Assembly (NCBI GenBank): GCA_016219325.1
Contig: JACRNH010000014.1
Span: 132-64,131, forward strand
From: Candidatus Collierbacteria bacterium
GTDB taxonomy: Bacteria > Patescibacteriota > Microgenomatia > UBA1400 > JACPES01
Direction: 5' to 3'
DNA length: 64,000 bases
Shown here: positions 265 through 13,845 of the stretch, in pieces
Position numbering within the stretch: position 1 is the stretch's first letter
Layout: every line of letters starts with the position of its first letter
The notes under the pieces: generated by a model
What the model saw: only the letters and a program-made list of their open reading frames with translations
What the model was told of the DNA's origin: nothing
The model's database searches: none
Position numbers and translations under genes: made by a program

Positions 265-270
265 CCTCAA

Positions 271-1902
271 ATGGAAAATTGGAATTGGACAAAACTTCTT
301 TTAATTTTTAGTTTTCTAATCTTTTTAGGATCGCTGCTTTTACGCCAAGAAACGGCAATAACGCAGGATTTGGGAAGACATTTAAGATTGGGAGAAATGA
401 TTACCGCCGATGGAGAAGCCGGAAAGTGCGCTCTTTATTCAAATTGCCTGACGTACACTTATCCTGATTATCCGTTTATAAATCATCACTGGGGATCGGA
501 AGTAATTTTCTATCTTGTCCATAAATGGTCAGGCTTTTCCGGAATTATTGTTTTTAAAACAATTATTCTGGGATTGACGTTTATAGTTACACTTCTCCAT
601 TCGCTAGAACTCAATAAAGGCCCGGCCTTTTTAAAAAGGCCGGGCCTTTTATGGCTAGCAATTGCTGTTAGTCTTGTTTTTTTCTCCGTCCAAATGATGG
701 CGGACAGGCTAACTACCCGCCCGGAAATTTTTGGATATTTCTTGTTTTCTATCTTATTCTGGATGCTGAATTCATCGTTTCCAAAACGTCTTTTATCATT
801 GTTTCTTGTTTTCTGCTCATTGCTCATTATTCTGTGGGTGAATTTACACATTTCGTTTGTGTTTGGATTGATACTTATCTGGATTTGGGCAGGGAGCCAA
901 TTATTAGCGTCATTGCGAGGGAGCGACAGCGACCGCGGCAATCTCGGAGATCGCCACGCCCCGCCGCGTCGAACGCGGCTGGGGCTCGCGATGACGGCAA
1001 CGGCGGCGGCGTCTACTATGGCAACTATTTTCAATCCTTCCGGACTCCGCGGAACGCTGATGCCGCTATCAATACTCAAAGACTACGGCTACACCATTGT
1101 GGAAAATATGAATCCTTTTTTCTTGACAGCATTTAAACCACAACCAGAATACTGGATATACATTATATTGTTGATAACGACTATTTTCTTATTTCTTTTT
1201 TCCTCCGCCAAAAAAAATCCTTTTCACCTGCTAACCTTTTTAACTTTTAGCCTTTTCCCTCTTATTGCCGTCCGCCACCTGCCATTTTTTGCGCTTGTAA
1301 TTTCACCTATCTTGGCCCCGTTACTCTTTAGCGTCTTAAAAGGCCCGGCCTTGCTTAGCAAGGCCGGGCCTTATGATGCCCATATTCCGATACTAACTAT
1401 TGGCTTCTTATTATTGACAGCATTTACCAATCCCATTCCTCTTGCCTACGCCAAACTCCCGCCGATAAATCTATCCACAGATTCCCGCCACGATCAGGCC
1501 ATCGAGTTTGTTAAACAAAATAATTTTCAGGGACCGATGTGGAATAACTACGACATCGGCAGTTTCCTGGAATGGGCGATTCCGGAACACAAGACTTTCG
1601 TTGACGGAAGACCTGAAGCATTCCCTGTTGGGTTTTTCAAAAAGACGTATATTCCGATGCAGGAATCGCAGAAAAAGTGGGACGAGGTAACCGCGGCAAA
1701 CGATATCCAGTGGGTGTTTGCGGCTCTGACAGACGCCACTCCGTGGTTTACCAAATGGTGGCAGATGATCCAAAATCATCAGGGTTGGAAGATTGTATAC
1801 ATTGATAATTACAGCACAATTCTGATCCGGACCAACGGCAAAAACAATTTAATTGAACCACAGGGAAAAGCTCGATTATTAAAAACCCTCAATTCGGATT
1901 GA
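271..1902 (+). CDS. Polytopic integral membrane protein (hypothetical). Carries two in-frame 33-34-nt palindromic inserts and a GC-rich insert.
   Basis: 543-aa ORF with many hydrophobic helices. Hairpin inserts at 616-649 and 1340-1372 and a GC-rich patch at about 897-1020 all lie in frame. Confidence 0.6.
   Translation: MENWNWTKLLLIFSFLIFLGSLLLRQETAITQDLGRHLRLGEMITADGEAGKCALYSNCLTYTYPDYPFINHHWGSEVIFYLVHKWSGFSGIIVFKTIILGLTFIVTLLHSLELNKGPAFLKRPGLLWLAIAVSLVFFSVQMMADRLTTRPEIFGYFLFSILFWMLNSSFPKRLLSLFLVFCSLLIILWVNLHISFVFGLILIWIWAGSQLLASLRGSDSDRGNLGDRHAPPRRTRLGLAMTATAAASTMATIFNPSGLRGTLMPLSILKDYGYTIVENMNPFFLTAFKPQPEYWIYIILLITTIFLFLFSSAKKNPFHLLTFLTFSLFPLIAVRHLPFFALVISPILAPLLFSVLKGPALLSKAGPYDAHIPILTIGFLLLTAFTNPIPLAYAKLPPINLSTDSRHDQAIEFVKQNNFQGPMWNNYDIGSFLEWAIPEHKTFVDGRPEAFPVGFFKKTYIPMQESQKKWDEVTAANDIQWVFAALTDATPWFTKWWQMIQNHQGWKIVYIDNYSTILIRTNGKNNLIEPQGKARLLKTLNSD
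616..649. repeat. Intragenic palindromic element, copy 1 (AAAGGCCCGGCCTTT-ttaa-AAAGGCCGGGCCTTT)
   Basis: Perfect 15-bp inverted repeat with a 4-nt spacer. Translated in-frame as KGPAFLKRPGLL. Confidence 0.8.
1340..1372. repeat. Intragenic palindromic element, copy 2 (AAGGCCCGGCCTTGC-tta-GCAAGGCCGGGCCTT)
   Basis: Perfect 15-bp stem with a 3-nt loop. 33 nt, in-frame (KGPALLSKAGP). Confidence 0.8.
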
Positions 1903-1937
1903 CAACCGGTCGGGTTTCAGTTAACCTAGGTGATATT

Positions 1938-2651
1938 ATGCCGGAATCGTCCAACAATAAAAATATTTTAATCGCCCTCCTGGCTGTTGCTGCTTTTTTA
2001 ATCGGATCGCTGTTTACCGAAGTCCGTTATTTAAAAAAATCCGGAAACCAAAATTCTCAAGTTGCCAACACCATCCCGGTTGCTGCTGAAGACAACATTT
2101 CTCCCCAACCGCTTTCTGACTCCGATCATGTTTTAGGAGACCGGAATTCCAGACTGCTATTTATAGAATATTCTGACCTCGAATGCCCGTTTTGCAAACA
2201 ATTCCATCCGACTACCAAACAAATACTAGAGGAATATAAAAATAACCTAGCTCTTGTTTATAGACATTTTCCGCTAGATATTCATCCCAAGGCCAGGAAA
2301 GAAGCCGAGGCGACCGAATGCGCCCGGGATTTGGGCAGTCCTTCTGATTTTTGGAAATTTGTCGATAAAATTTTTGAAGTTACACCGTCCAACAACGGCT
2401 TAAATCCTGACGAACTACCGAAACTTGCTGTCCAAATCGGCCTGAATGAAAATAAATTTAAAGATTGTTTGGCAAGCGGAAAATTCACCCAAAAAATCGC
2501 TGATGATTACGATCAGGGAATTAAAGCCGGAGTTGGCGTCACCCCCAGCAGTGTAATTGTCGATACTAAAACCGGCAAAAGCAAAACCATAACCGGGGCT
2601 GTCCGCCCGGAACAAATTAAGTCCGTTATTGACGCCATGCTGAAGGAATAA
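1938..2651 (+). CDS. DsbA-family thiol:disulfide oxidoreductase (thioredoxin fold), membrane-anchored
   Basis: CPFC active-site motif (SDLECPFCKQFHP) and an N-terminal hydrophobic anchor. AGGTGA lies 8 nt upstream of ATG 1938. The ORF track starts at TTG 1899, overlapping the previous stop. Confidence 0.75.
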   Translation: MPESSNNKNILIALLAVAAFLIGSLFTEVRYLKKSGNQNSQVANTIPVAAEDNISPQPLSDSDHVLGDRNSRLLFIEYSDLECPFCKQFHPTTKQILEEYKNNLALVYRHFPLDIHPKARKEAEATECARDLGSPSDFWKFVDKIFEVTPSNNGLNPDELPKLAVQIGLNENKFKDCLASGKFTQKIADDYDQGIKAGVGVTPSSVIVDTKTGKSKTITGAVRPEQIKSVIDAMLKE

Positions 2652-3305
2652 ATGAATAGACTTCTGAAGACGATCGGTTTTATTCTTCTGCTTGTTGTAA
2701 TCTCCGCCGGCGGAATATTTATCCTGACCCGGAAACCGAAAGCGGTTGAAGGGATAGAAACATTTCCCAGTCAGGGCCGCAATCACGTCCCTGCCGGAAC
2801 TATCGGAGAATATAACAGCAATCCGCCTACTTCGGGACCGCACTACACCCAATGGGAAAAACCGGGAATATACAATAAGGTTCTTCCGGACGGAAACTTA
2901 ATTCACTCGTTGGAACACGGATATGTGATAATTTCGTACGATTGTACGAAATTATCAAACTCAAAACTCAAAACTCAAAGTTCAAAATTTTGGAAGGTTT
3001 TTGCGCATGAAACGGAAGAGATCCATGAAGAACCTCCGGCCACAGATAGCGCTGATGTCAAACCAGATAATATTTCCGGATGGAAAGATAGTCCTGATTG
3101 CCAAAAATTGGTTGATCAGATAAAACAAGTTACCAAGAAAACCGGCATGGACAGGCTGATCGTAGTTCCCAGGCCAAATCTTGATGTCCCAATAGCTATG
3201 ACGTCCTGGACAAAATTGTTGAAACTGAACGACGTCAACGAAGACAAAATTATTAATTTCGTTAAAGAATTCCGGAACAAAGGTCCTGAAAAAACCATGG
3301 AATGA
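2652..3305 (+). CDS. DUF3105 family protein, membrane-anchored
   Basis: PPTSGPH and HSLEHGYVIISY motifs with an N-terminal TM. Contains a heptamer tandem repeat at 2957-2988. Confidence 0.6.
   Translation: MNRLLKTIGFILLLVVISAGGIFILTRKPKAVEGIETFPSQGRNHVPAGTIGEYNSNPPTSGPHYTQWEKPGIYNKVLPDGNLIHSLEHGYVIISYDCTKLSNSKLKTQSSKFWKVFAHETEEIHEEPPATDSADVKPDNISGWKDSPDCQKLVDQIKQVTKKTGMDRLIVVPRPNLDVPIAMTSWTKLLKLNDVNEDKIINFVKEFRNKGPEKTME
2957..2988 (+). repeat. Heptanucleotide tandem repeat (AAACTCA x3 plus a variant) inside a CDS
   Basis: caaactcaaaactcaaaactcaaagttcaaaa, encoding SNSKLKTQSSKF. Confidence 0.75.
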
Positions 3306-3327
3306 CAGGCTTTTTTTCAGGGCGAAT

Positions 3328-3621
3328 TTATCCCAATTCTTTTTCCAGTTTGGAAATCTTAAGCATTCTAAGGATATTCCCGATTAAGACGAAAAGGGAG
3401 AATCCAACTCCGATTGCCAACAACACCAAAGGCAAGTTGGCCGGAATATTCGGCAGGAATTGGTAAAGGACCGGATAAAACATCAGGGCCATAAACACTA
3501 CAAGGATTACCAAAATTGCTTCCAAAGAATAAATAATCTTCTCTAGCCTCAACTGCTGAATCCTAAATTCAAGATTTGGTTTAACCTTAACCGCCGGAGT
3601 TGTAACTGTTTTTCTTGGCAC
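3328..3621 (-). CDS. Small membrane protein (hypothetical), last gene of the metal operon
   Basis: 97 aa with two hydrophobic helices, lying downstream of the ATPase on the same strand. Confidence 0.45.
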   Translation of the reverse strand: MPRKTVTTPAVKVKPNLEFRIQQLRLEKIIYSLEAILVILVVFMALMFYPVLYQFLPNIPANLPLVLLAIGVGFSLFVLIGNILRMLKISKLEKELG

Positions 3622-3671
3622 GAAAATTATTATATATCAAAAAAATCTGCATGCAATAGGAAAAATTAATT

Positions 3672-5771
3672 TTAGACCTCAAGCTTGACTTTTTTTAAGG
3701 CCATGGCGTTAATTACCACAATCACTGAAGACAGACTCATCAAAAACGCCCCTATTCCCGGTGTAAGTTGAAAGCCAAGCGGGATAAATAAGCCTGCAGC
3801 GGCCGGAATCGCCAAAACGTTATAGCCGGTAGCCCACAGTAAGTTTTCTATCATTTTCCGGTAGACTTTTCTGGAAAGGATAACCAGCCTGGCCACGTCC
3901 TCCGGATTGCTGCGGGTTAAAACTACGTCTCCTGATTCAACCGCGACGTCAGTCCCGGCCCCAATCGCCACTCCGGCATTGGCCTGTTTCAAGGCCGGGG
4001 CGTCATTAACGCCGTCTCCCACCATAATGACTATCTCGCCTTTATCCTGAAGGCTCTTAACATATTTATATTTATCGGCCGGTAAGACTTCAGCAAAAAC
4101 TGTATCCATCTCCAGCTCTTTACCCACGTCTTCTGCCACTTGGTGGTTATCTCCGGTAACCATGGCTGCTTTGACCCCTAATCGGTGCAAGCTTTTTATG
4201 GCAGATATTGATTCGGGCTTGATTTGATCGGACAAAGAGATTGTCCCCAAAATTTGTTTCCCGTCGGCAACAAATACTGTCGTTCCCCCACCGTCTTCTC
4301 CATTTACCGAAAGCCCTTTTTCTTTCATTAATCTGAAATTGCCAATCGTATATTTAATTTTCCCAACAGTGCCCTCTATTCCTTTCCCAGCCAAATTTTT
4401 AAAATTGACAACGGACTGAAGAGATACGCCTTTTTGTTTGGCATATTTGACGATTGACAGGCCGATAACGTGAGAGGAATGGACTTCTAGGGAGGCTGCT
4501 ATTTCAATTAAGGCCTGGCCTTGCAAAGCAAGGCCAGGCCTTTTAAGACTTACGATTTTAGTCACCCCGAACTCCCCCTTCGTCAATGTTCCGGTCTTGT
4601 CAAAAATCACATAAGTAGCTTTTTTAATTACCTCTAATTTTCCTAAATCTTTCAGAAAAACGCCGTTTTTAACGGCTAAAGTTGTGGCAATAGTTGAGAC
4701 AGTTGGGATAGCCAAGCCTAAAGCATGCGGACAGGCAATTACCAAAACCGTAATCGCCAAAGTCATGGCAAAAACAAACGGCTGTCCGGCTACCGCCGAC
4801 CAAAAGAACAAAGAAAATAATCCGACCGTCAAGGCGGTAAGGGTCAAAATTCCGGCGGCCTTGTCGGCGATCTTTTGGGCGGTAGGCTTGGTTTTTTGGG
4901 CTTGAGCGATAAGGTTTTTAATCTGGCCTATAGTTGAATTTTCTCCGACTTTATCCAACTTGACTTCCACCGAACCATCAAGACAAATAGCTCCGGCTAT
5001 CGCTCTATCGCCGGTTTTTTTGGATACCGGCCGTGATTCGCCGCTGATATGAGATTCATTAAAGTTGACCGCGCCCTTAATGATTATTCCGTCGGCCGGG
5101 ACTTTCTCCCCAGGCTTGACCAATACTACGTCCCCCTCTTTCAACTCTTCAATATCTATATCTTCTGTTAATTCTGAATTCTGAATTCTGAATTCTGAAT
5201 TAATTATGCGGTGGGCCTGTTTCGGCAACAACTTTGCCACTTCTTTCAGAGCATCGCCGGCTGCAGTAGAAGATTTAGCTTCTAAGAAATGGCCGAATAA
5301 CAACACCCAAATCAGAGTAGATATTTCCAGATAAAATTCGGTTTTAATCGCCGGAATAAATGTTGAAGCGGCGGAAAATAAGTACCCTGAACCGACGGCC
5401 AATGATACTAAAGTCATCATCCCGTATTTCTTAGCCATCCATTCATGGCGGGCATGCTGGAAGAAAATCAGGCTGAAGTAGAAAATGACGGTGGCAGCTG
5501 CAAATTCTAAATAGTTCCGACCGGCGAAATCCGGCATTCCCAGAAACCTAATACCCAGTTTGCTGGTTATCAACAACGGAACCAATAACAAAGTGACGAT
5601 TAAAAATCGTCTCAAAAAATCTCCGGCGGCTTGCGGCCCGGCCATCATGGCGGCGTGATCATGAGATTCATTAGCCTCATGCTGCGGAACTAAATCCATT
5701 CCCCCGCACTTGGGACATTTTCCGGGATGATCCTGTTTAATCTCGGGGTGCATGGGACATGTATAAATCAT
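3672..5771 (-). CDS. copB: Heavy-metal translocating P1B-type ATPase with CPH motif (CopB-like) and an N-terminal CPMHPE...CPKCGM metal-binding domain
   Basis: DKTGTLT, GDGVNDAPAL and CPH (VIACPHALGLAIP) motifs are present. The N-terminus reads TCPMHPEI...GKCPKCGM. Eight TM-like segments. Confidence 0.9.
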   Translation of the reverse strand: MIYTCPMHPEIKQDHPGKCPKCGGMDLVPQHEANESHDHAAMMAGPQAAGDFLRRFLIVTLLLVPLLITSKLGIRFLGMPDFAGRNYLEFAAATVIFYFSLIFFQHARHEWMAKKYGMMTLVSLAVGSGYLFSAASTFIPAIKTEFYLEISTLIWVLLFGHFLEAKSSTAAGDALKEVAKLLPKQAHRIINSEFRIQNSELTEDIDIEELKEGDVVLVKPGEKVPADGIIIKGAVNFNESHISGESRPVSKKTGDRAIAGAICLDGSVEVKLDKVGENSTIGQIKNLIAQAQKTKPTAQKIADKAAGILTLTALTVGLFSLFFWSAVAGQPFVFAMTLAITVLVIACPHALGLAIPTVSTIATTLAVKNGVFLKDLGKLEVIKKATYVIFDKTGTLTKGEFGVTKIVSLKRPGLALQGQALIEIAASLEVHSSHVIGLSIVKYAKQKGVSLQSVVNFKNLAGKGIEGTVGKIKYTIGNFRLMKEKGLSVNGEDGGGTTVFVADGKQILGTISLSDQIKPESISAIKSLHRLGVKAAMVTGDNHQVAEDVGKELEMDTVFAEVLPADKYKYVKSLQDKGEIVIMVGDGVNDAPALKQANAGVAIGAGTDVAVESGDVVLTRSNPEDVARLVILSRKVYRKMIENLLWATGYNVLAIPAAAGLFIPLGFQLTPGIGAFLMSLSSVIVVINAMALKKVKLEV
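4510..4542. repeat. Intragenic palindromic element, copy 3 (AAGGCCTGGCCTTGC-aaa-GCAAGGCCAGGCCTT) within copB
   Basis: Perfect 15-bp stem with a 3-nt loop. 33 nt, in frame (LKRPGLALQGQAL on the minus strand). Confidence 0.8.
5171..5203 (-). repeat. Heptanucleotide tandem repeat (GAATTCT x about 4.4) in-frame within copB
   Basis: attctgaattctgaattctgaattctgaatt on the plus strand; the gene strand encodes INSEFRIQNSE. Confidence 0.85.
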
Positions 5772-6610
5772 TTTTTCCCTATCTTAAATAGTTTGACAGC
5801 TAATAAAATCATTATAATCAGAAAGATAAAATTAAGACCGGGGATTTCTTCGGCAACAGCCGATACCCCGAAGGCCACGTTTTGAATTAATTTAGTGGAT
5901 TCTGATTGACCGGAATCCATTCCCAACAATCCCAGCCTTGTCATAGAAATAGTTGCCAAACCGGTGATTAAAAAAACCGCTGACGCGACTATATTAGACA
6001 CTAACAAATCATATTTCTTACCGAATATATTTATTTCCCCGATTGACTTTCTCATGAGAGGCCGGTCAAGAATATTACGGCTGTCAATAAATGCCGATGC
6101 CAAATAAAGCGGGGCGACCATTCCCAAAACATAAAATGTTCCGACTCCCAAAGACATTAAAATTGTCGGTGATAAAGTCGATAAAGCCATCACTCCGATC
6201 AGTACCGGCGCGCAACACGAGCTGGTAATACCGGAAAAAACTCCCAAGGTGAAGCTGGACCAGACATCAACTTTTCCGGTGTTTTTACGTTGTAAATTAA
6301 TCATCGGCAATTTAATCCCCAACAAAGCAAAGATTGCCAAAATTAATAAAAAAATTCCCCCGAGATAATAAGTTTGGTCATGGAGCCGGAAAAATAACAT
6401 TGATAAGGCTTTGGCTCCCAAAACTACCGGCAACATGATGGAAAAAATTCCCAAGGAATAAATAAATGTCATCAACAGGACCTGTTTTTTCTCTCGGAAA
6501 ATATTTCCGAAATACGACGGCAACAGATAGGTAATACAGCAAGGAGCAAAAAGGGCTACCGATCCGGCAATAAAAGCAGCCAAAAATGAAATTGAGGTAT
6601 ACGCGTCCAT
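5768..6610 (-). CDS. DsbD/CcdA-family integral membrane protein with doubled (vicinal) cysteines
   Basis: FAPCCITYLLP and SSCCAPVLIG sit in positions equivalent to the two conserved Cys of the DsbD transmembrane domain. 4-bp overlap with copB. Confidence 0.6.
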   Translation of the reverse strand: MDAYTSISFLAAFIAGSVALFAPCCITYLLPSYFGNIFREKKQVLLMTFIYSLGIFSIMLPVVLGAKALSMLFFRLHDQTYYLGGIFLLILAIFALLGIKLPMINLQRKNTGKVDVWSSFTLGVFSGITSSCCAPVLIGVMALSTLSPTILMSLGVGTFYVLGMVAPLYLASAFIDSRNILDRPLMRKSIGEINIFGKKYDLLVSNIVASAVFLITGLATISMTRLGLLGMDSGQSESTKLIQNVAFGVSAVAEEIPGLNFIFLIIMILLAVKLFKIGKK

Positions 6611-7576
6611 TTAAGCCCCACAGCTCCCGCCGCGGCTTTGAATCCCCGGGACTCCCTGAATGGCTTGGTTTATCCGGGCGGCGCCCTGGGCGGAAGAATA
6701 ATCTTTGGATAGGGCCACCCGGGGATCGACTTTATCCCAACTTATTCCCTGCTGTTTTTGGAAGTAAACCGCCATTTCAACATATGTATCGGGAAACCAG
6801 AAAGAATTGAGAGCCAGAATGTCTTTATAAATTTGTTTTTCCGAAAGCCCGGCGGAAACAGCAAGTTCAATATAGGCGAGGGCGGCCATGCCGTGGTTGC
6901 AGTCGGGAAAAGCGGTGGCGTTGCCGCAGCAGGGACGGTAAACATTTTCGGCAATTTTTTTGACCATTTCCTGCTGTTGCGGAGTCAAAGGAATAATCTC
7001 TTGACTGCTATAAAGCTCAACCGCGGTTTTTTTACCCAGAGTCCAGCCGCCGGTGGAAGCGAAATTGCCCAATTTGGAGCGGTCGGAAACCATCGGGCCC
7101 TCGTCGAGAACTTTACTTTTGTTGATTAAACCCAGAGCCCATAACAAATTGACTACCAGGCGGGAATTGTTTTCGTTGATAGCGATAGGTTTATTGGAAT
7201 TACCGTTAAGAATGTCAAGATCCGCCCGACCGTCGATATCTGATTTATGGATTTGTTTAAACTTTTCAGCATCAATGGCGCCGGAGTCGACCAGTTTTTT
7301 ACCGATATCTCCCCATTTTAGCGAAGTGACATATCCGCCGGAAGGCAATACTTGAGCGGTGGCTTCTTTGACCAAAAGTTCGGGATTCTTAATTTCCGTC
7401 AGTTGCCGCCGCAGCCGATTTACTTGGCGTCTCATGATCATTTGGTCGGTCAACGCTCCCAACGCTAAAGAATCAATCGTAAATATAATTACCAACCATA
7501 GAGGAACCAATTTCTTAAAAAACTTTATCAGGCGGCCTTGTTTTCTTTTAAATAAAATTTGTTTTAATGTTTTCAT
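6611..7576 (-). CDS. Exported or membrane-anchored Cys-rich protein (hypothetical)
   Basis: N-terminal TM segment, an RPCCGNATAFPDCNHG motif and a C-terminal GGSCGA. Confidence 0.5.
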   Translation of the reverse strand: MKTLKQILFKRKQGRLIKFFKKLVPLWLVIIFTIDSLALGALTDQMIMRRQVNRLRRQLTEIKNPELLVKEATAQVLPSGGYVTSLKWGDIGKKLVDSGAIDAEKFKQIHKSDIDGRADLDILNGNSNKPIAINENNSRLVVNLLWALGLINKSKVLDEGPMVSDRSKLGNFASTGGWTLGKKTAVELYSSQEIIPLTPQQQEMVKKIAENVYRPCCGNATAFPDCNHGMAALAYIELAVSAGLSEKQIYKDILALNSFWFPDTYVEMAVYFQKQQGISWDKVDPRVALSKDYSSAQGAARINQAIQGVPGIQSRGGSCGA

Positions 7577-8064
7577 TTCACAACACTTCCTTTCAGTGTA
7601 AATTCCAGTTTAGGATTATTTTTATCATTGGTTTCAACTTCAATTTGCCTAGTCATCGCGCCTACGCCGGAAGGTCCGTGAAAAGCCGGATCAAATACTA
7701 TTTTCAACTCTGCTTCTTTTCCGGCCGGCACTTCTCCGATCCAAGACGATTTTTGATGCATCCCGAAAAAGGGACTTCCCTTTCCATCGATTATGACTTG
7801 CGCCGTAGTACACATGCAAGAGGTGGAAACGCCGGAAAGTTTTAAGGGTCCAACACCAATATTTTTGATCAAAAACACTTTCTCCGCGTTTCCGCCATTG
7901 ATTTTAATTTCTCCCCAATCGTGATTAGTTTCCCCAACTTCAACCTTAGACTGATCAGATTTTTCCACCGCAACCCCAACCGGCTTTGACAACAACCACG
8001 CCCCCGTTCCCAAAATGGCAAAAGTGATTATCCCTATAACTATAAATACTGTTTTATGTTTCAT
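7573..8064 (-). CDS. DUF1573 domain protein
   Basis: N-terminal TM, HDWGEI, and the CMCTT motif typical of DUF1573. Confidence 0.6.
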   Translation of the reverse strand: MKHKTVFIVIGIITFAILGTGAWLLSKPVGVAVEKSDQSKVEVGETNHDWGEIKINGGNAEKVFLIKNIGVGPLKLSGVSTSCMCTTAQVIIDGKGSPFFGMHQKSSWIGEVPAGKEAELKIVFDPAFHGPSGVGAMTRQIEVETNDKNNPKLEFTLKGSVVK

Positions 8065-8537
8065 TATTTATGTTTATTTACAAATTTGTTCTCGCACCCT
8101 TCGGCGCAAAAATAATAGGTCTTGCCCTTTTGTTTTAAGGCCCTGCCGGCCGTCTTCGGCGACAACCTCATTCCGCAAACCGGATCCCGCACCAAGGGTA
8201 CCATATCTTTCATTTTTAATCTTAACTCCTCTGTCAGGTTTTCATTGCCGCGGTTTTGGCCGATCAACATTTCGCGGATAAGGTCGGACGATTTAACAAT
8301 ATTTTTATGCGACAATTTATAATAAATATTTGTGCCTTTTTTTCTGGTGGTAACCAAATGAAACTCCCTTAATACCATCAAATGCTGGCTTAAATTGGCC
8401 TGCGGCAAGCCCAGCATCTCCACCATCTGGCTAACGGACATTTCCTGATCCCTTAATAAATGAACTATTTCCAGCCGCTTGGGGTTGGATAAAGCGGCGT
8501 AAACATCGGCGTGGAGTTGAAAGATTTGAGAATACAT
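8064..8537 (-). CDS. ArsR/SmtB-family metalloregulator fused to a C-terminal YHS metal-binding domain
   Basis: ArsR HTH (KRLEIVHLL...LSQHL) followed by DPVCGM...YYFCAEGC, a YHS signature. Confidence 0.75.
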   Translation of the reverse strand: MYSQIFQLHADVYAALSNPKRLEIVHLLRDQEMSVSQMVEMLGLPQANLSQHLMVLREFHLVTTRKKGTNIYYKLSHKNIVKSSDLIREMLIGQNRGNENLTEELRLKMKDMVPLVRDPVCGMRLSPKTAGRALKQKGKTYYFCAEGCENKFVNKHK

Positions 8538-8622
8538 TCGATTTGTTGAATATTATGATAACCTCTCGGCTTAGTCAAGAAGCAAATAACGGCAGCCGGC
8601 ACGAGTCGTCCACCGATAGTTG

Positions 8623-8886
8623 CTACTTTTTTCCGCCGACTTTTTCCCAGGACCAGCCGAAAAGCCAGCCGTAAATCCAGCCGGCAATCACCAACGCAAT
8701 TCCGCCGGCGATAAAGCTGATAAAGGTGATGTTGATATCACTCACCGGCCAACGGCCGTGAGTCCACCAAGACAGAATTGTTCCGGAAAAACCGGGCAGC
8801 AGCCAGACAAAGGCAGTACAAGTTACCCAGACGACCGCGGCCCAAAGAGCAACCGTGTTGGCAATAACAAGTTTATTTGATTTCAT
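8623..8886 (-). CDS. Small membrane protein (hypothetical)
   Basis: 87 aa, hydrophobic, Trp-rich, inside the operon. Confidence 0.4.
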   Translation of the reverse strand: MKSNKLVIANTVALWAAVVWVTCTAFVWLLPGFSGTILSWWTHGRWPVSDINITFISFIAGGIALVIAGWIYGWLFGWSWEKVGGKK

Positions 8887-9332
8887 GATTGATCACCTTC
8901 TTTCAAGCGCGATAGCTGTCTCCATAAGTATACCGAGCCGACGATGTTGGAGGCAATCCCGATTGCCAATAGAGGAGCTTGGAAATTTACCAACCACAGG
9001 GACAAAGCCGATAGCCCTAAAATCGGAACGACGTCGGCGAGGTGATGGGCACAGCAGGCGATCATGGAGACGGTGGAGGTGGCGGAACCGGCGGCCATCA
9101 TGCCTTTACCGACAACTGATTTAGCTAGAGATTTTAAATAATAAAATAACCCTACTTGAACGCCAAAACCGGCAACCAACGGCAGCATTAAATACCAAAG
9201 TTGCCGAAACTGCCACCAGGCCGCGTCCCACGAACCGGCCAAAAGCCGCATGGTAAGGGAATAAAACAGAAATAAACCGGCGGCTGCCAGAAATCCAATT
9301 GAAAATGAAAAGAATTTCGGTTTGGTATTCAT
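8883..9332 (-). CDS. Membrane protein with a CCAHH motif (hypothetical)
   Basis: Four hydrophobic segments and an IACCAHHLAD motif. 4-bp overlaps with neighbouring genes. Confidence 0.45.
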   Translation of the reverse strand: MNTKPKFFSFSIGFLAAAGLFLFYSLTMRLLAGSWDAAWWQFRQLWYLMLPLVAGFGVQVGLFYYLKSLAKSVVGKGMMAAGSATSTVSMIACCAHHLADVVPILGLSALSLWLVNFQAPLLAIGIASNIVGSVYLWRQLSRLKEGDQS

Positions 9333-9775
9333 TTTAATTCGTCAAACATAAACTCTTGCCTGGCGACTTCGGGCGTTTCCAAGAAAATTATTTTGAGCGG
9401 CGCAGATACCCGGTTAAACTTGACTTCGGCAGAGCGGTGATGGTTGGCGCCTTCGGTTTTGACTGCGACAGGAGAAAACTTCCGGCCGGATGCCTCCAGG
9501 ATGACGGATTTTTGAAAGTCGATATCGTCCAAATCAACCGAGTGGGTATTTAAAGAAACTTCAAAGACAATCTTGTTTTCGTCGGATTTTCCGGCCAGAT
9601 AATTCACCTCGACAGAAACTTGTCCTGCCGGTTGTTGCGTTCCGCCGGTAACCGCTTCAGGTGGCGGAATTAGAGATTTTGACGTCGTCCTGGCGCTCGA
9701 AATTCTTTGCCAAACCAGTATCCCAATAACAGCGGTTACCAAACCTAATCCCAAACTAAAATTTCTATATTTCAT
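9329..9775 (-). CDS. Exported protein (hypothetical), first gene of the metal operon
   Basis: Start is probably the internal ATG at 9775 (MKYRNFSLGL... signal-like). The ORF track extends to 9826. Confidence 0.45.
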   Translation of the reverse strand: MKYRNFSLGLGLVTAVIGILVWQRISSARTTSKSLIPPPEAVTGGTQQPAGQVSVEVNYLAGKSDENKIVFEVSLNTHSVDLDDIDFQKSVILEASGRKFSPVAVKTEGANHHRSAEVKFNRVSAPLKIIFLETPEVARQEFMFDELK

Positions 9776-9819
9776 AATATTCGAATGTTTGAATATAATC
9801 TTATCGTCTGGCTTTCTGA

Positions 9820-10563
9820 TTGTCAACTTGTCTGTATAATCAATCTGTGAATTTATTCCTAATCCTTTCCGCTTTGCTGGCGGGATTCTTAATGTTTTTT
9901 GCCCCTTGCACCCTGCCGACTGTTCCGGGATTTTTAGGCTTCATCAGCGGGTCTTCAAAAAAGAATTCCTTAAAAAACGCCCTTTTCTATGTATTTGGGT
10001 TCATGTTGATATTTATTCTGCTTGGAGGGATCTTCGGCATTGGCGGTGCGGCATTGAGACAATATCGCTTAATTCTCCAAAAAATCGGCGGGCTGTTCAT
10101 CATCTTTTTTGGACTGATGACTACCGGATTTCTTCGTCATCCTATTTTTCAATGGTCCTTTAATATTCCTTTATCTAAACATCTAAAACCGGGAAAACCA
10201 GTTAGTTCTTTTCTCTTCGGAGCTGCTTACGGACTGGGCTGGACTCCCTGTATCGGTCCGGTTCTGGGCAGTATTTTGCTTTTGGCATCATCTTTTGAAA
10301 ACGCGACTCAAGGAATCATATTATTAATAATTTTCTCCCTCGGACTAGCAATTCCCTATCTGCTTGTAGCGTCAGGATTTTCTTCAATTGTGGATAATGC
10401 TAAAAAATTCCGCCCTGTTTTCAGGGGGATTGAAATAATCGGCGGAATTCTAATGATAATCATCGGCATATTATTGGTTACCAATAAGTTCGGCCTGATG
10501 GTATCAACAACTTTTAGACTGTTCGATTTTATTAATTACGATAGCTTATTAAAATATCTCTAA
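9820..10563 (+). CDS. ccdA: Cytochrome c-type biogenesis / thiol-disulfide transporter CcdA (DsbD family)
   Basis: FFAPCTLP and GWTPCIGPVLG motifs with six TM segments. The true start may be GTG 9867, because a TATAAT-like box at 9835-9840 lies inside the TTG-start ORF. Confidence 0.7.
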   Translation: MSTCLYNQSVNLFLILSALLAGFLMFFAPCTLPTVPGFLGFISGSSKKNSLKNALFYVFGFMLIFILLGGIFGIGGAALRQYRLILQKIGGLFIIFFGLMTTGFLRHPIFQWSFNIPLSKHLKPGKPVSSFLFGAAYGLGWTPCIGPVLGSILLLASSFENATQGIILLIIFSLGLAIPYLLVASGFSSIVDNAKKFRPVFRGIEIIGGILMIIIGILLVTNKFGLMVSTTFRLFDFINYDSLLKYL

Positions 10564-10564
10564 T

Positions 10565-12160
10565 ATGTTTCCATCCTCAAAAATCATCGCCGTATTGTCT
10601 TTTTCTATCTTTTTATCAGGAGTAATAAATATTACTTCAGCCATCTGGTCGCATGCTCCCGATAGGATTTCTTTATTAATCCAATATATCCCGCTGATTG
10701 TCAGCCATACCACCAGAAGCTTGACAATTGTTCTGGGAATTTTTCTGATATTCCTGTCACAGGGATTATTAAAGCGAAAATATCGCGCCTGGCTGTTTAG
10801 CATCGGACTGTTATCCATATCTTTACTCTTGCACGCGCTCAATGGATTAAACTGGGAAGAGGCTTTGATTCTGATTTTTCCTTTGGGAATCTTGATTTTT
10901 TACAAAGATTTATTTGTCGTCGAAAGTAACCGTGCGACAGCCAAGTCCAGAATAAAATATCTTCTGTTAGTATTGACGTTCCTGTCAACCTATTTATTTA
11001 TTGGCTTTCTGGTATTCAGAGACGAACTGATCTATCTCCCATCAGCTCAAGGGCTCGTTGAAAGTCTGGTTAATTTATCCACCGGCCTTGGAAACAGCTA
11101 CATATTCCCTATAACTGATCCTGCTGATTGGTTTTTAAATTCAATCAAATTTGTTGAATTATTTGCGGTTATATTCTCCGTCAGTTCAATATTTGCTCCG
11201 CTGACAGATAAATTACAACCCTCTGAAGATGAACAATTTTTAGCCCAGAATTTAGTCCGGCTTTATTCAGTAAATTCTGTTGCTTATTTCAGCTTATCCG
11301 GCGATAAAAAATATTTTTTCCATAACAATTGTTTTGCGGCATATAAAACCGCCGGCGACACGGCGGTAGTCCTGGGCGACATTATCGGTCCTGATTCTGA
11401 GATCCAGGAATCCTTAAATGCATTTATAAAATATGTTGCCATAAAAGGCTTAACTCCCGTTTTTTTTAATATTAATGAGTCAATGGCGCAGTTAATCCAA
11501 AATTACGGATGGAAAATTATGCCAATCGGATTGGAAGCAGTTCTAGATACTTCATTATTTGACATATCTCAGCCTGAACTAAAAAGCATCCGTTACAGCG
11601 TGAATAAAATAGAAAAATTGGACGCGGCGTATAAATGGTTTTCGGCCAAAGATCTTCCTTGGGAAGCCTTAAAAGACATTGAAAATTTATATCATGAATG
11701 GATTGGGAAAAAACACGCGCCAAAATTAAAGTTTTCCCAAAATTATTATCCCTTACCGGTTGATGAAAACGTAAAAATCCTTGCTGTCTATTCTCCGCAA
11801 GGGGTTCTGTGGGCGGCGTTAAGCTTTCTGCCTTACCAAAACGGAACAAGTTACTCTCTGGATTTAATGATCAGAAGCAAAAATACCCCATACGGAGCCA
11901 TAGCAGCCGGAATAGCTCAGTCAATTGACTTTATGAAAGAGCGCGGCGTCAAGCGGATAAATTTGGGACTGGCACCTTTAGCATCAATCGGAATGCCCAA
12001 GTTTTTGCTGCACAGATTGAATACTATATATAAATACCGTTCTTTATATGAGTTCAAAAAACAATTTAATCCTATTTGGAATAAAAAATATATCGCCCTG
12101 CCAAAATACACTGGTTTGCCAAAAGCCACATTGGCCATATTTCGGGTCCATTCCGCCTGA
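10565..12160 (+). CDS. MprF-like protein: N-terminal membrane domain plus a C-terminal DUF2156 aminoacyl-phosphatidylglycerol synthase-like domain
   Basis: Hydrophobic N-terminal half. The C-terminal half reads YFSLSGDKKYFF...AAYKTAGDTAVVLGDIIGP, DUF2156-like. Confidence 0.5.
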   Translation: MFPSSKIIAVLSFSIFLSGVINITSAIWSHAPDRISLLIQYIPLIVSHTTRSLTIVLGIFLIFLSQGLLKRKYRAWLFSIGLLSISLLLHALNGLNWEEALILIFPLGILIFYKDLFVVESNRATAKSRIKYLLLVLTFLSTYLFIGFLVFRDELIYLPSAQGLVESLVNLSTGLGNSYIFPITDPADWFLNSIKFVELFAVIFSVSSIFAPLTDKLQPSEDEQFLAQNLVRLYSVNSVAYFSLSGDKKYFFHNNCFAAYKTAGDTAVVLGDIIGPDSEIQESLNAFIKYVAIKGLTPVFFNINESMAQLIQNYGWKIMPIGLEAVLDTSLFDISQPELKSIRYSVNKIEKLDAAYKWFSAKDLPWEALKDIENLYHEWIGKKHAPKLKFSQNYYPLPVDENVKILAVYSPQGVLWAALSFLPYQNGTSYSLDLMIRSKNTPYGAIAAGIAQSIDFMKERGVKRINLGLAPLASIGMPKFLLHRLNTIYKYRSLYEFKKQFNPIWNKKYIALPKYTGLPKATLAIFRVHSA

Positions 12161-12194
12161 TTGTTTTTTCTTCTAAATTGTATTTAAATAATAA

Positions 12195-12488
12195 ATGACG
12201 GAAGGAGGTGAAACATTCATGAAAAAACTTGACGCGCATCAAACAGGGATGGCGCTGGGAGTATTAACCGGCCTTATCCATGCAGCGTGGTCTGCCCTGG
12301 TTTTCCTTGGCCTTTCTAAGCCGCTATTAGACTTTATCTACGGTATTCATTTTCTGTCAAATCCGTTTATCGTCGCCAAATTCAACTTTTCTAATGCTGT
12401 TATATTGGTGATCTTTACGACTGCAGTTGGATATATTTTTGGCGGATTATTCGCCTGGATTTGGAACTGGCTGCACGGAAGAAAATAA
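12195..12488 (+). CDS. Small membrane protein (hypothetical)
   Basis: 97 aa with three hydrophobic segments. GGAGGTG RBS upstream. Confidence 0.4.
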   Translation: MTEGGETFMKKLDAHQTGMALGVLTGLIHAAWSALVFLGLSKPLLDFIYGIHFLSNPFIVAKFNFSNAVILVIFTTAVGYIFGGLFAWIWNWLHGRK

Positions 12489-12490
12489 GG

Positions 12491-12766
12491 CTAATTTAAT
12501 TTCCAAATTGCCCAATTAAGGTATGTGGCAAAAGTTACCCAAACTAAATACGGTGCTAAAAGCCAGGCAGCGGAAGTAGATTTGCGGCGGAAATCTTTGA
12601 TCGTCAGAACGATAGACAACCACAAAACTACTATATTTAATAATCCTAACCTTGGGGATCTAAGCCCAAAAAAGGATAACGACCAATTAGCGTTTAGTAT
12701 CAGTTGAATCCAAAACCAGATCAGCCGGGCACGATGACTCCAGGCTAAATACAAGGAGATCCTCAT
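12491..12766 (-). CDS. TspO/MBR-family protein, short (C-terminal part only)
   Basis: The LLAPYLVWVTFATYLNWAIWKLN signature matches the TspO C-terminus, but the ORF is 91 aa against the usual ~155. Confidence 0.4.
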   Translation of the reverse strand: MRISLYLAWSHRARLIWFWIQLILNANWSLSFFGLRSPRLGLLNIVVLWLSIVLTIKDFRRKSTSAAWLLAPYLVWVTFATYLNWAIWKLN

Positions 12767-12827
12767 TATCTAACTAACCGGCTAGCTGAGGCCAGCTGGA
12801 AAACCAAACTGCTGGTAGAATATTTTT

Positions 12828-13367
12828 ATGGACATAATCTCAAGAAATATTCCTGACGAAATTTTAATTGACAAAGTTAAAGACGGCGATGTTGAAGCCT
12901 TTGAGATGTTGGTAAAAAGATACTCCGGAAAAATCCTAAGTTTTGTTTTTAAGATATTACATGACAGATATATAAGCGAAGAAGTTGTCCAGGATTCTTT
13001 CTTCTCTTTATATAAATCAATTAACCGGGTTGATACAAAAAGGAAATTCTCATCATACTTATATAAAATTGCCAAAAATAAAGCTATTGAGAAATTTAGA
13101 ACAAGGAAAAACCAACTGGCATTGAACGAAGAAATCGTCAGCGGAAACGATGATAATATTTATGAGAAAATCATTAAGTCTGAAAATAAGATCAGAATTA
13201 GAAAGGCCGTTGATGAATTAGAGAAAAAATACAGGGACCCAATCAGCCTTTATTTTTTTGAAAATCTATCATATGACCAAATTGCAGAAAAGCTTTCTAT
13301 TCCAGTTAATACCATAAGAACAAGATTAAAAAGAGGAAAAACGGCATTAAGAAAAAAACTAATATGA
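12828..13367 (+). CDS. ECF-subfamily RNA polymerase sigma-70 factor
   Basis: Sigma region 2 and region 4 (LSYDQIAEKLSIPVNTIRTRLKRGKTALRKKL) are both present. Confidence 0.8.
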   Translation: MDIISRNIPDEILIDKVKDGDVEAFEMLVKRYSGKILSFVFKILHDRYISEEVVQDSFFSLYKSINRVDTKRKFSSYLYKIAKNKAIEKFRTRKNQLALNEEIVSGNDDNIYEKIIKSENKIRIRKAVDELEKKYRDPISLYFFENLSYDQIAEKLSIPVNTIRTRLKRGKTALRKKLI

Positions 13368-13762: not shown

Positions 13763-13845
13763 CCAAAACTTTCGTAGGTGAAACTTTTCTCAAGTTCCTC
13801 TCGTATTAATAGATAGGCAGTAAAAAAGAAAGGGGGTGAAATAAA

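Follow-up and report, generated by a model that had tools for sequence, protein, structure and literature searches.

A probably copper-responsive gene cluster of Candidatus Collierbacteria with a candidate thiol relay beside a CopB-type ATPase

We analysed a 64-kb window (the whole stretch of 64,000 nucleotides) from a contig of Candidatus Collierbacteria, a CPR bacterium, in which ORF calling gave nine minus-strand genes (9826–3328) that set a P1B-type ATPase among several Cys-motif proteins (Table 1). We read the locus, giving this about an even chance, as a copper-responsive envelope regulon in which a non-thioredoxin envelope thiol-reducing relay would work beside CopB, analogous to Scs or to the CcdA–CcmG–CcmH pathway. 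If true, CPR bacteria in their hundreds would pair a copper-export pump with three Cys-rich envelope proteins of uncharacterized families, acting as a re-purposed electron relay that protects or services the cell surface under copper stress. A literature search found no paper on the cluster.

Table 1. Positions of the genes and putative control sites in the window
Feature	Position	Strand	Evidence or characteristics
DsbA-like thioredoxin-fold protein, convergent	1899-2651	+	flank of g9 side
DUF3105 protein, convergent	2652-3305	+	after DsbA-like gene
g9, small two-TM protein	3328..3621	-	ORF calling
g8, P1B-type ATPase, CopB type	3672..5771	-	CPH motif, MSLSS, N-terminal HMBD zinc-ribbon metal-binding domain
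g7, CcdA/DsbD-family permease, 280 aa	5768..6610	-	profile search
g6, PCC321, 321 aa, N-terminally anchored, extracytoplasmic	6611..7576	-	new family
g5, DUF1573 Ig-like protein, N-terminally anchored	7573..8064	-	Pfam; invariant C83-x-C85, H129
g4, ArsR/SmtB HTH with C-terminal YHS	8064..8537	-	Pfam/NCBIfam
Operator 2	8534..8553		ATATTCAACAAATCGAATGT; overlaps arsR-YHS start codon
Promoter-like site, unit 2 (g4-g9)	8550..8578	-	TTGACT-17-TAATAT; within the g3/g4 gap
g3, DUF5676 two-TM protein	8623..8886	-	Pfam/NCBIfam; invariant C23, H43
g2, four-helix membrane protein, 149 aa	8883..9332	-	invariant M..ACCAHH (IACCAHH here)
g1, exported or anchored protein, 148 aa	9329..9775	-	ORF-called as 165 aa from TTG 9826
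Operator 1	9777..9796		perfect palindrome ATATTCAAACATTCGAATAT; directly before ATG 9775
Promoter-like site, unit 1 (g1-g3)	9798..9826	-	TTGACA-17-TAAGAT; inside ORF-called 5' extension of g1
Canonical CcdA, divergent	9820..10563	+	single-Cys PC / PC.GP motifs

Transcription units and gene calls

The initial annotation had described a nine-gene coupled operon in which all genes abut or overlap by 4 bp. Such overlaps were found at g1/g2, g2/g3, g5/g6 and g7/g8, with a 1-bp overlap at g4/g5 and direct abutment at g6/g7, but the description fails at g3/g4 and g8/g9, which are separated by 85 bp (8623/8537) and 50 bp (3672/3621) respectively. A promoter-like site lies ahead of both g1–g3 and g4–g9, and the two groups share one palindromic operator (consensus ATATTC-N8-GAAT[A/G]T), indicating two transcription units of three and six genes within one ArsR–YHS regulon rather than a single operon. 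With full palindromic half-sites, the operator had two matches in the window, both at unit starts, and the same motif precedes ArsR–YHS genes at other loci. Since the unit 1 promoter-like site and operator lie ahead of an internal ATG, this codon (9775) is probably the true start of g1. A plus-strand promoter-like site (9771–9799) faces the divergent ccdA and carries operator 1 in its spacer; this overlap suggests that ccdA may be co-regulated.

No Pfam family matched g1, which contains the motifs NTHSxDL and HH(R) and is always paired with g2, or g2 itself. Membership of g9 in the system is doubtful, as it was kept only in the closest Collierbacteria relative (one of the 80 loci fetched).

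Conservation and the probable copper link

The family defined by PCC321 spans 419 species genomes of GTDB and 596 clusters when grouped at 50% identity. Neighbourhoods were counted in 79 loci, over which the order DUF1573/PCC321/permease (the triad) is conserved: DUF1573 lies directly before PCC321 in 63/79 and the permease directly after it in 51/79, and the string regulator–DUF1573–PCC321 occurs in 44/79. The usual arrangement is a Cu(I)-type CsoR or an ArsR–YHS, then the triad, then CopA or CopB, often with cupredoxins. Only the triad, the regulator and the P1B ATPase make up the widely conserved core; g1 and g2 were each found in nine of the 79 loci and DUF5676 in 37. The DsbA, DUF3105 and canonical CcdA proposed to flank the operon are all in place. 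Elsewhere DsbA is near the triad in 25/79 loci and DUF3105 in 7/79, and in three loci DUF3105 replaces DUF1573 directly upstream of PCC321.

All of the Cys motifs quoted in the initial annotation were recovered (APCC/SSCC, RPCCGN...DCNHG, IACCAHH, the DUF1573 CMC and the ATPase CPH). The CC, Cys and His motifs are 99–100% conserved in 70–87 orthologs (12 for the IACCAHH protein). Co-occurrence of the families elsewhere and conservation of the CC motifs, whose lack the initial annotation would have counted against its reading, were both observed. Taken together, motif conservation and the recurring gene order indicate that the locus is more than a chance assembly.

The proposed ArsR regulator with a fused YHS domain was confirmed by Pfam and NCBIfam. 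Its ArsR core contains no cysteine, and in its YHS domain C121, M123, C144 and C148 are invariant among orthologs, with D118 at least 90% conserved. Copper sensing by YHS modules, through one aspartate and three cysteine residues, has experimental support (PMC4626032), and g4 is probably a copper-sensing autoregulator. CsoR is present in 45/79 loci and ArsR–YHS in 16/79. A Cu(I)-type Cys...His...Cys signature was found in 40/40 of the CsoRs read, namely those sitting just upstream of the triad out of the 45 loci. Most of their genes are preceded by the palindrome ATATCCCC-N4-GGGGGATAT adjoining TTGACA (the CsoR box), and the 16 ArsR–YHS loci carry an ATATTC-N8-GAATAT operator. CopA or CopB was found in 56/79 loci and Cupredoxin_1 proteins in 39/79, with DUF305 or Met-rich proteins at some. 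The g8 product scored 530 bits against the NCBIfam model for Cu-type P1B ATPases (TIGR01511; cutoff 397). The cluster is metal-linked, with copper as the most probable metal.

Might the genes instead be accessories of mercury resistance, or handle sulfur or persulfide? Inside one cluster (L017), a small ArsR adjoins a MerA-like oxidoreductase whose C terminus carries CC, a homologous pair occurs at another (L025), and rhodanese is fused to DUF1573 in nine loci and to PCC321 in P0363. CsoR-family regulators also include persulfide sensors. Members of this family can control sulfur oxidation (PMC10318464). We consider this reading very improbable, since MerA-like genes occur in 2/79 loci only and none in the window, no MerR, MerT or MerP family was matched in Pfam or NCBIfam, the CsoRs combine the Cu(I) signature C-H-C with CsoR-type boxes, and the ATPases are copper types.

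The triad: electrons or metal

No Pfam or NCBIfam model matched g7, including when the cutoffs were relaxed to E<10 for Pfam and E<1 for NCBIfam, and its earlier description as a DsbD-like CC permease was borne out by profile search only. The g7 profile aligned with the solved CcdA structure of T. thermophilus (5VKV; E=4.9e-16, both catalytic cysteine residues aligned) and with the window's own CcdA (hhalign probability 95.9), and the whole CcdA electron-transporter core is retained in the alignment. Each catalytic cysteine is doubled, giving APCC and SSCC, a further TM lies at the C-terminal end, and H77 (predicted to lie outside), M47 and M164 are family-specific invariants absent from T. 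thermophilus CcdA. We know of no canonical CcdA/DsbD with vicinal CC at both catalytic positions, and electron transfer by these proteins needs no such doubling.

PCC321 has an invariant RPCC.N.....DCNHG motif and a near-invariant cysteine in a flexible tail, GGSCGA, at the C terminus. The resemblance of its C-terminal domain to CcmH is weak but consistent: the top PDB match in Foldseek was CcmH 2kw0 (prob 0.80, TMt 0.65), and hhalign gave E=0.018 against CcmH, 0.0013 with a more diverse profile, and 0.0086 against a natural CcmH–DUF1573 fusion protein. All four tests point to the same region of PCC321, each below conventional significance. A domain of CcmH-like, thiol-oxidoreductase type describes PCC321 better than generic metal binding does. 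The fusion protein, which physically ties DUF1573 to a CcmH-type domain, adjoins a PCC321 homologue (L085). Permease-less relatives have other conduits for electrons as neighbours (Ferric_reduct TM with NAD_binding at L084; Fer4_5 at L081 and L085). Selenocysteine forms of DUF1573 occur at its CxC motif (UGC).

In the thiol relay that we favour, a rise in copper would be sensed by ArsR–YHS through its YHS domain, and the regulator would leave two identical operators, releasing both transcription units. CopB would export cytoplasmic Cu(I), and a three-protein thiol relay would work on the membrane's outer side. In it, the permease would move reducing equivalents, presumably from thioredoxin, out of the cytoplasm and across the membrane to DUF1573, an anchored Ig-fold protein with a CxC motif that takes the place of CcmG and would hand them on to the anchored CcmH-like PCC321. 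The reduced cysteine residues with their invariant His partners could re-reduce envelope proteins carrying copper-misoxidized cysteines and, alternatively or in addition, bind and buffer the Cu(I) that CopB has exported; unit 1 would be an accessory metal-handling membrane module. The gene content, the conserved motifs and gene order, the regulator and operator sites, the homology of the permease to CcdA and the domain fusions are observed; that copper induces the units, which way the electrons run, in what sequence the partners act and on which substrates, we infer. Against the relay, the operon encodes no thioredoxin-fold partner; every CcdA/DsbD pathway known to us uses one. The doubled catalytic cysteines, the sub-significant CcmH similarity and Woesebacteria, in which DUF1573 and PCC321 are kept without the permease, were also counted against it. 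The initial annotation had proposed a relay for Cu or another thiophilic metal with redox components; the metal link and the DsbD/CcdA-family permease stand, and the word relay goes beyond them, as the cysteines may carry electrons, metal or both.

The main rival, which we rank as possible but clearly less probable, is a Mer-like conduit in which the CcdA fold is re-purposed from disulfide to thiolate-bound metal ion. Cu(I), or else Ag(I) or Hg(II), would bind directly to the vicinal cysteines of g7 and g2 and move from ligand to ligand across the membrane or along it, with DUF1573 and PCC321 as extracytoplasmic metallochaperones. Vicinal CC pairs in membrane helices are a hallmark of Hg(II) transporters, and in the permease they arise by symmetrical doubling and are nearly invariant. 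Cytoplasmic C-terminal CC tails in three permease orthologs, together with the invariant His and Met residues, fit metal binding better than redox. Some g2 homologues are fused to metal-binding domains, either HMA (GMTCGxC) or YHS plus HMBD. PCC321 offers CC+C+H and DUF1573 CxC+H, sets that we take to resemble the Cu(I) sites of Cox17 (CC pair) and Sco (2Cys+His), and the cluster lies under copper sensors beside copper ATPases. However, the complete electron-transporter core of the permease, the CcmH–DUF1573 and rhodanese fusions and the neighbouring electron conduits point to redox; a toxic-metal importer needs a cytoplasmic detoxifier such as MerA, of which the window has none, and a second exporter beside CopB would be redundant. 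We know of no metal transporter in the DsbD family.

The relay might also serve metalation rather than stress defence, as in TlpA/Sco-like copper-protein assembly, by keeping the ligand cysteines of secreted cupredoxin-type proteins reduced and loading them with copper from the P1B ATPase. In the Ccm system, a Cys pair is normally reduced by CcmH-type proteins shortly before the protein that bears it receives its cofactor. Cupredoxin_1 genes precede CopA in the 39 loci that have them, and at L084 and L085 long PCC321 forms stand beside small cupredoxins with a CuA motif (C-x3-C-x3-H-x2-M) and a COX2+cytochrome c protein. We judge assembly unlikely, since neither the window nor the other ArsR–YHS/CopB-type loci contain a cupredoxin, CPR cupredoxins have a single Cys and not the CuA motif, and derepression via CsoR or ArsR is typical of detoxification.

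Comparison with known systems

Scs (PMC10907172) and dsbDEG of P. aeruginosa (bioRxiv 10.1101/2020.08.17.255257) are copper-induced DsbD-type reductive systems. In these, as in our reading of the present locus, the reducing power for copper-protective envelope Cys proteins would come from a DsbD-family membrane protein, copper induction being our inference here. ScsB and DsbD have periplasmic domains, whereas the permease is a minimal CcdA-type core with doubled cysteines and an extra TM; its partners are Ig-fold CxC and CcmH-like proteins, not the thioredoxin-fold ScsC/ScsD or DsbE/DsbG. The regulators also differ (ArsR–YHS or CsoR), the system is genetically fused to a CopA/CopB operon, and the host is a CPR bacterium, from a group that by most descriptions has no outer membrane.

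Cytochrome c maturation (CcdA/DsbD, CcmG/ResA, CcmH, apocytochrome c) likewise runs from a CcdA-type transporter to membrane-anchored extracytoplasmic Cys proteins, the last with a CcmH-like helical domain whose Cys motif lies between helices 1 and 2. However, the window has no ccmF/E or heme-handling genes, and cytochromes are, to our knowledge, generally missing from CPR bacteria. RPCC...DCNH replaces LRCxxC as the motif, PCC321 carries a further domain at its N terminus and a Cys-bearing tail at its C terminus, DUF1573 fills the CcmG position, and the system is under copper regulators.

Mer systems (MerT/MerC/MerF with MerP) share vicinal Cys-Cys in membrane helices, an exported Cys protein and HMA fusion or association, but no sequence or fold relationship was detectable; neither MerA nor MerR is present, the permease is homologous to CcdA, and the regulators and ATPases are copper types. 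As in cop operons (CsoR/CopY–CopZ–CopA/CopB), a copper-type P1B ATPase is placed under a metal-responsive repressor, with CsoR boxes in most related loci. We agree with the initial annotation that this is not a textbook cop or mer operon: CopZ is absent, the window's regulator is an ArsR–YHS fusion, and three to six extra Cys-motif envelope proteins of uncharacterized families stand between regulator and pump.

Gene arrangement and putative transcriptional control

Nine minus-strand genes (g1-g9) were found as ORFs across positions 9826-3328, and the flanking DsbA, DUF3105 and canonical CcdA genes named in the initial annotation were confirmed. The 321-aa product of g6 shares 100% identity with a hypothetical protein from a Candidatus Collierbacteria bacterium, which places the window in a CPR (Microgenomates) genome. 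That annotation had also described all nine genes as abutting or overlapping; this held at the other junctions but not at g3/g4 and g8/g9, which are separated by gaps of 85 and 50 bp respectively. The families of g3, g4, g5 and g8 were confirmed by Pfam and NCBIfam, and single-sequence searches with g1, g2, g6, g7 and g9 gave no match at E<10 (Pfam) or E<1 (NCBIfam). Profile searches had been proposed for the DUF1573 and DsbD families: DUF1573 (PF07610) was recognised in g5 (46.1 bits against a cutoff of 26.1), but g7 fell below the DsbD models of Pfam. The translation of g8 scored 530 bits against TIGR01511 (cutoff 397), with E1-E2_ATPase, Hydrolase and HMBD domains, and contains ACPHALG (CPH) and MSLSS, as expected of a CopB-like P1B copper-ATPase.

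Coordinates of the genes, putative control sites and neighbouring features in the window
Feature	Position	Strand	Description
g1	9826-9329 (as ORF-called)	minus	Exported protein
g2	9332-8883	minus	Membrane protein, IACCAHH
g3	8886-8623	minus	DUF5676
g4	8537-8064	minus	ArsR HTH + YHS
g5	8064-7573	minus	DUF1573, CMC
g6	7576-6611	minus	PCC321, 321 aa, RPCCGN...DCNHG...GGSCGA
g7	6610-5768	minus	Permease, APCC/SSCC
g8	5771-3672	minus	CPH-type P1B ATPase, N-terminal HMBD
g9	3621-3328	minus	Small two-TM protein
Operator 1	9777-9796		Perfect palindrome
Operator 2	8534-8553		Inverted repeat ATATTCAACAAATCGAATGT
Promoter-like site, g1	9826-9798	minus	TTGACA-17-TAAGAT
Promoter-like site, g4	8578-8550	minus	TTGACT-17-TAATAT
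Promoter-like site, ccdA	9771-9799	plus	Faces divergent canonical ccdA
DsbA	1899-2651	opposite to g1-g9	Thioredoxin fold
DUF3105	2652-3305		Flanking gene
Two-TM protein	12195-12488	plus	97 aa
TspO/MBR ORF	12491-12766	minus	91 aa
Genes beyond ccdA	10565-12160, 12828-13762	plus	MprF-like protein (LPG_synthase_C domain), ECF sigma factor, putative anti-sigma membrane protein

The g3/g4 gap contains a promoter-like site followed by an inverted repeat (operator 2) that overlaps the arsR-YHS start codon. At least six other loci have the pattern ATATTC-N8-GAATAT ahead of an ArsR-YHS gene; in the 64-kb window it had three matches with one mismatch allowed, two of which had both palindromic half-sites. 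A perfect palindrome (operator 1) lies directly after a second promoter-like site and directly before an ATG at position 9775. From the palindrome, the promoter-like sites and this ATG we conclude that g1 probably starts at 9775, giving a product of 148 aa, that the locus would comprise two transcription units (g1-g3 and g4-g9) and that ArsR-YHS would control both as a single regulon. Across the region, promoter-like and terminator-like sites were no more numerous than expected from shuffling, and only the two promoter-like sites coinciding with operators were used for the unit assignment. The divergent canonical ccdA may be co-regulated with the cluster, since the promoter-like site facing it overlaps the operator 1 palindrome.

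The winged-helix part of g4 is of the ArsR/SmtB type (HTH_5, E=1.7e-13; NF033788, 85.3 against a cutoff of 55). With no Cys in residues 1-110, neither metal site of the ArsR core (alpha3 CxC or alpha5 His/Asp) was found, and the conserved candidate ligands D118, C121, M123, C144 and C148 are all within the YHS domain. The YHS domain of a mycobacterial adenylyl cyclase is a copper-specific sensor module, probably acting via one Asp and three Cys (PMC4626032). In other genomes, 40 CsoR proteins are encoded directly upstream of the triad formed by DUF1573 (g5), PCC321 (g6) and the permease (g7), and 40/40 contain Cys...His...Cys (YCID...NHLKTC). Such a pattern is typical of a CsoR that senses Cu(I). 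Upstream of most of these csoR genes lies a GC-rich palindrome, ATATCCCC-N4-GGGGGATAT, beside TTGACA, which is the known CsoR operator type (B. subtilis, Listeria and Streptomyces CsoR boxes). In two loci from other genomes, the stretch from the CsoR box to the start codon of csoR contains short tandem repeats (four copies of AAGTTC in L002, ~9090-9130, and four of TTTCTAA in L029, ~9175-9210).

Recurrence of the triad in other genomes

A pattern scan in which each GTDB species was represented by one genome detected relatives of g6 in 419 genomes. We fetched 80 loci, of which 79 were classified by tblastn and ORF-level classification, with genes in the compared loci called by a simple longest-ORF heuristic. 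Judging by labels and gene content, the fetched loci are from CPR-type genomes. Many MAGs with a typical CPR locus (L012, L013, L015, L016, L020 and others; binchicken co-assemblies) are labelled 'uncultured Gammaproteobacteria', 'Pseudomonadales' or 'Brocadiaceae', probably a labelling artefact of the public record.

The order of the triad recurred, with DUF1573 immediately 5' of PCC321 in 63/79 loci and the permease immediately 3' of it in 51/79; the string regulator-DUF1573-PCC321 was seen in 44/79. Two arrangements were found, [CsoR or ArsR-YHS]-DUF1573-PCC321-permease-(Met-rich)-DUF5676-(IACCAHH protein-g1-like)-cupredoxin-CopA-cupredoxin-CopA and ArsR-YHS-DUF1573-PCC321-(rhodanese-DUF1573)-permease-CopB. 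CsoR was present in 45 of the 79 loci, ArsR-YHS in 16, a P1B ATPase in 56, DUF5676 in 37, DsbA in 25, and the IACCAHH protein and the g1-like protein in nine each; g9, which is outside the families classified, was matched by tblastn in only 1/80 fetched loci. Two unrelated copper-type repressors and two copper-ATPase subclasses flank the same triad, and this regulator and ATPase context is the strongest evidence that it serves copper homeostasis. Cupredoxin_1 proteins were encoded in 39/79 loci; that the triad is a cupredoxin-maturation pathway nevertheless seems improbable to us.

The vicinal cysteines singled out in the initial annotation, and further Cys and His residues with them, were essentially invariant among orthologs in the permease (C24, C25, C132 and C133, with H77), PCC321 (C216, C217, C226, H228 and C319) and g2 (C93, C94 and H96). 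The same was true of C83, C85 (both in 87/87 sequences) and H129 of DUF1573, selenocysteine forms of which are known with UGC at the CxC position, and of C23 and H43 of DUF5676.

CcdA homology and probable CcmH likeness within the triad

The best-supported reading, which we hold with middling confidence, is that the cluster encodes a thiol relay of the envelope, induced by copper and organised like the reductive branch of cytochrome c maturation. The CcdA-type permease g7 would act on DUF1573, in the position of CcmG, and DUF1573 on the CcmH-like PCC321; working beside the Cu(I) exporter, the relay would re-reduce envelope cysteines oxidised by copper, retain the Cu(I) that is exported, or do both. 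A functional precedent exists in Scs and DsbDEG, two systems that copper induces (PMC10907172; bioRxiv 10.1101/2020.08.17.255257).

A profile of 29 g7 sequences matched T. thermophilus CcdA (PDB 5VKV) with E=4.9e-16 over residues 7-221, the full six-TM core; hhalign with the window's own CcdA gave a probability of 95.9, and C24 and C132, the first Cys of each pair, aligned with the catalytic Cys of CcdA (PC and C.GP contexts). On the basis of these comparisons g7 is best regarded as a true CcdA-family protein, its single sequence scoring below the Pfam DsbD_TM/DsbD_2 gathering score. P23, P31 and P135 are invariant, as is the Cys directly after each catalytic Cys (C25 and C133), which is absent from CcdA. 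The protein has a seventh hydrophobic segment and a predicted N-out/C-in topology (positive-inside rule) with H77 outside, and three permease orthologs end in a predicted cytoplasmic CC tail. Lys-rich tails with an extra Cys-Cys (..SCCKDKK, ..PPCCQK) were observed at L073:3633-4517, L058:5164-6042 and L054:2415-3293.

The PCC321 family comprises 596 clusters at 50% identity. The signature R-P-C-C-x-N-x5-D-C-N-H-G was invariant in 83 diverse representatives, at least 90% of which also had the C-terminal Cys. The AlphaFold model (pLDDT 78.9) starts with an N-terminal anchor helix and a mixed domain; its C-terminal domain is helical and its tail disordered. When this model was compared with PDB folds, the E. 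coli CcmH N-terminal domain matched best (prob 0.80, TMt 0.65, E=1.4), and hhalign with CcmH in the same region gave E=0.018, which a more diverse profile improved to 0.0013 over 63 columns. The gene after that of a long PCC321 homolog in L085 encodes a protein to which Pfam assigns a CcmH domain (E=3.3e-9) and a DUF1573 domain (E=1.5e-12); this fusion (L085:1987-2814) has the Cys loop RCPCCENN..ECTC, aligns with PCC321 at E=0.0086 and appears to be an intermediate sequence joining PCC321 and CcmH. The C-terminal domain of PCC321 is therefore probably CcmH-like, each single test being sub-threshold. The CcmH-defining LRCxxC motif is absent from PCC321, which has RPCC.N.....DCNHG instead, and 0/20 members scanned one by one matched any Pfam family, PF03918 included. 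Searches of PDB sequences with the PCC321 profile, DUF1573 and g1 gave chance-level matches only. A kinship of PCC321 with a Cys-rich 202-aa neighbour family was rejected (E=0.19). The L085 fusion has as neighbours two more DUF1573 genes, a PCYCGC-family protein, CuA-motif cupredoxins, a Fer4_5 membrane protein and a rhodanese.

Long PCC321 forms have an N-terminal four-TM domain with a GCPxCG motif, and one member (P0363) is fused to a rhodanese domain. The permease is absent from six Woesebacteria-type loci (L057, L062, L069, L077, L079 and L080); loci of this type have a 174-aa membrane protein between DUF1573 and PCC321 (e.g. L080:9009-9533) whose predicted mature N-terminus, after a signal sequence, is HCPLCVAGAG. 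Fer4_5 membrane proteins were found in L081 and L085, and a Ferric_reduct membrane protein in L084. From these neighbours and the permease, it follows that a membrane protein that conducts electrons or bears a Cys motif is a regular companion of PCC321. At L084:4488-10948, a CPH-type P-ATPase, a long PCC321 form (four-TM domain, GCPVCG), a CuA-motif cupredoxin CSVPCGAGHVGM, a rhodanese, the Ferric_reduct protein and an NAD-binding protein stand in one row, an arrangement that looks like a different route for supplying electrons to the extracytoplasmic module. A comparable CPLC protein occurs in L082, without significant pairwise homology to the 174-aa protein; pairwise BLASTP comparing 'CPxC' membrane proteins with one another (HCPLC174, TM171, the 159-aa protein of L082 and the long-PCC321 N-terminal domain) gave E=1.4 and 0.12, a motif-level resemblance only. 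In L060, L061 and L063 (DsbA-DUF3105-PCC321), DUF3105 replaces DUF1573 directly upstream of PCC321, which suggests that the DUF3105 gene flanking the window cluster is functionally related.

Possible metal carriage and comparison with known systems

For g2, 116 homologs were detected and four helices predicted (model pLDDT 85.8). Foldseek found no meaningful PDB fold match, so that a MerF/MerT-like fold was neither shown nor excluded. Some homologs have an N-terminal HMA (GMTCGxC) domain or YHS+HMBD domains, and these fusions directly point to metal handling. The gene is adjacent to that of a g1-like protein (motifs NTHSxDL, HH) also in Chloroflexota-type and high-GC contigs; the pair has DUF5676, DUF1573, a CcdA-like protein with a single Cys and a CPLC membrane protein as neighbours in L082, and ccm genes in L081.

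These fusions bear on the main rival reading, in which the metal itself would travel on the vicinal Cys pairs, as it does in MerT/MerC/MerF. The doubling of both permease catalytic Cys, the permease-specific His and Met residues and the CC tails of its orthologs point the same way, but the CcdA core is intact, there are redox-type fusions and a cytoplasmic detoxifier is lacking, all of which argue against it, and we consider it rather doubtful. The triad could also be an unrecognised, thioredoxin-fold-free extracytoplasmic cysteine relay (a CcdA-fold permease with four thiols in two Cys-Cys pairs at its catalytic site, an Ig-fold CxC protein and a CcmH-derived protein) carrying thiolate-bound Cu(I), with or instead of electrons, though we think this less likely than not. 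The electron-relay and metal-carrying readings are not mutually exclusive; Sco proteins are thiol oxidoreductases and copper chaperones at once.

A mercury or sulfur function is highly improbable. A mer operon was rejected for the window, where no MerA, MerR or MerT was found; no MerA-like sequence was present in the 64 kb, and the cluster proteins matched no Mer family in Pfam or NCBIfam. At L017:14797-16652, and also in L025, a MerA-like pyridine-nucleotide-disulfide oxidoreductase ending in ...KLSCCI comes directly after a small ArsR-type regulator; in L017 the two genes have a cupredoxin-CopA pair on either side, within a Daviesbacteria cop cluster. No ccm gene (ccmF, heme lyase) was among the ORFs listed for positions 1-14000, and a cytochrome c maturation reading was rejected on this result and on the copper regulators. 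An Scs operon combines a ScsB-type DsbD with the thioredoxin-fold ScsC/ScsD, and neither unit encodes a thioredoxin-fold protein, the sole one nearby being DsbA. The cluster is outside Scs, Ccm, mer and classical cop, lacking at least one defining feature of each, which bears out the initial view that it is not a textbook cop or mer operon. Scs and CcdA-CcmG-CcmH are the closest in proposed working; unlike them, this cluster has non-thioredoxin partners, a CC-type CcdA and ArsR-YHS or CsoR control.

To our knowledge, copper-induced envelope thiol systems of the Scs and DsbDEG type are known only in Gram-negative model bacteria and use thioredoxin-fold proteins, and we found no description of this cluster in the literature on DUF1573, DUF5676 and CPR with CopA. 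If the thiol-relay reading holds, such a system would extend to the Candidate Phyla Radiation, in at least 419 species genomes, and testable roles would be gained for families without any (DUF1573, DUF5676, PCC321, the IACCAHH membrane proteins and the exported g1-like proteins paired with them). How the DsbD fold adapts, possibly to metal transport, could be learned from this CcdA variant and its vicinal Cys pairs. Were Cu(I) the cargo, the permease would be the first metal-translocating DsbD-family member, and CPR bacteria, which as far as we know are without cytochromes, would have kept and re-tooled the thiol-reduction machinery of cytochrome c for copper handling. With two defined regulator-operator pairs, one for ArsR-YHS and one for CsoR, the hypothesis is directly testable in a heterologous host despite the organisms being uncultured.

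Several other genes in the window were noted. The 97-aa two-TM protein had no Pfam match and lacks the conserved Cys of DUF5676; its C-terminal helix GYIFGGLFAWIWNW resembles that of g3, GWIYGWLFGWSW. The TspO/MBR ORF covers positions 50-144 of the 145-position profile and is either N-terminally truncated or mis-called at its start. Beyond the divergent CcdA lie an MprF-like protein, an ECF sigma factor and a putative anti-sigma membrane protein.
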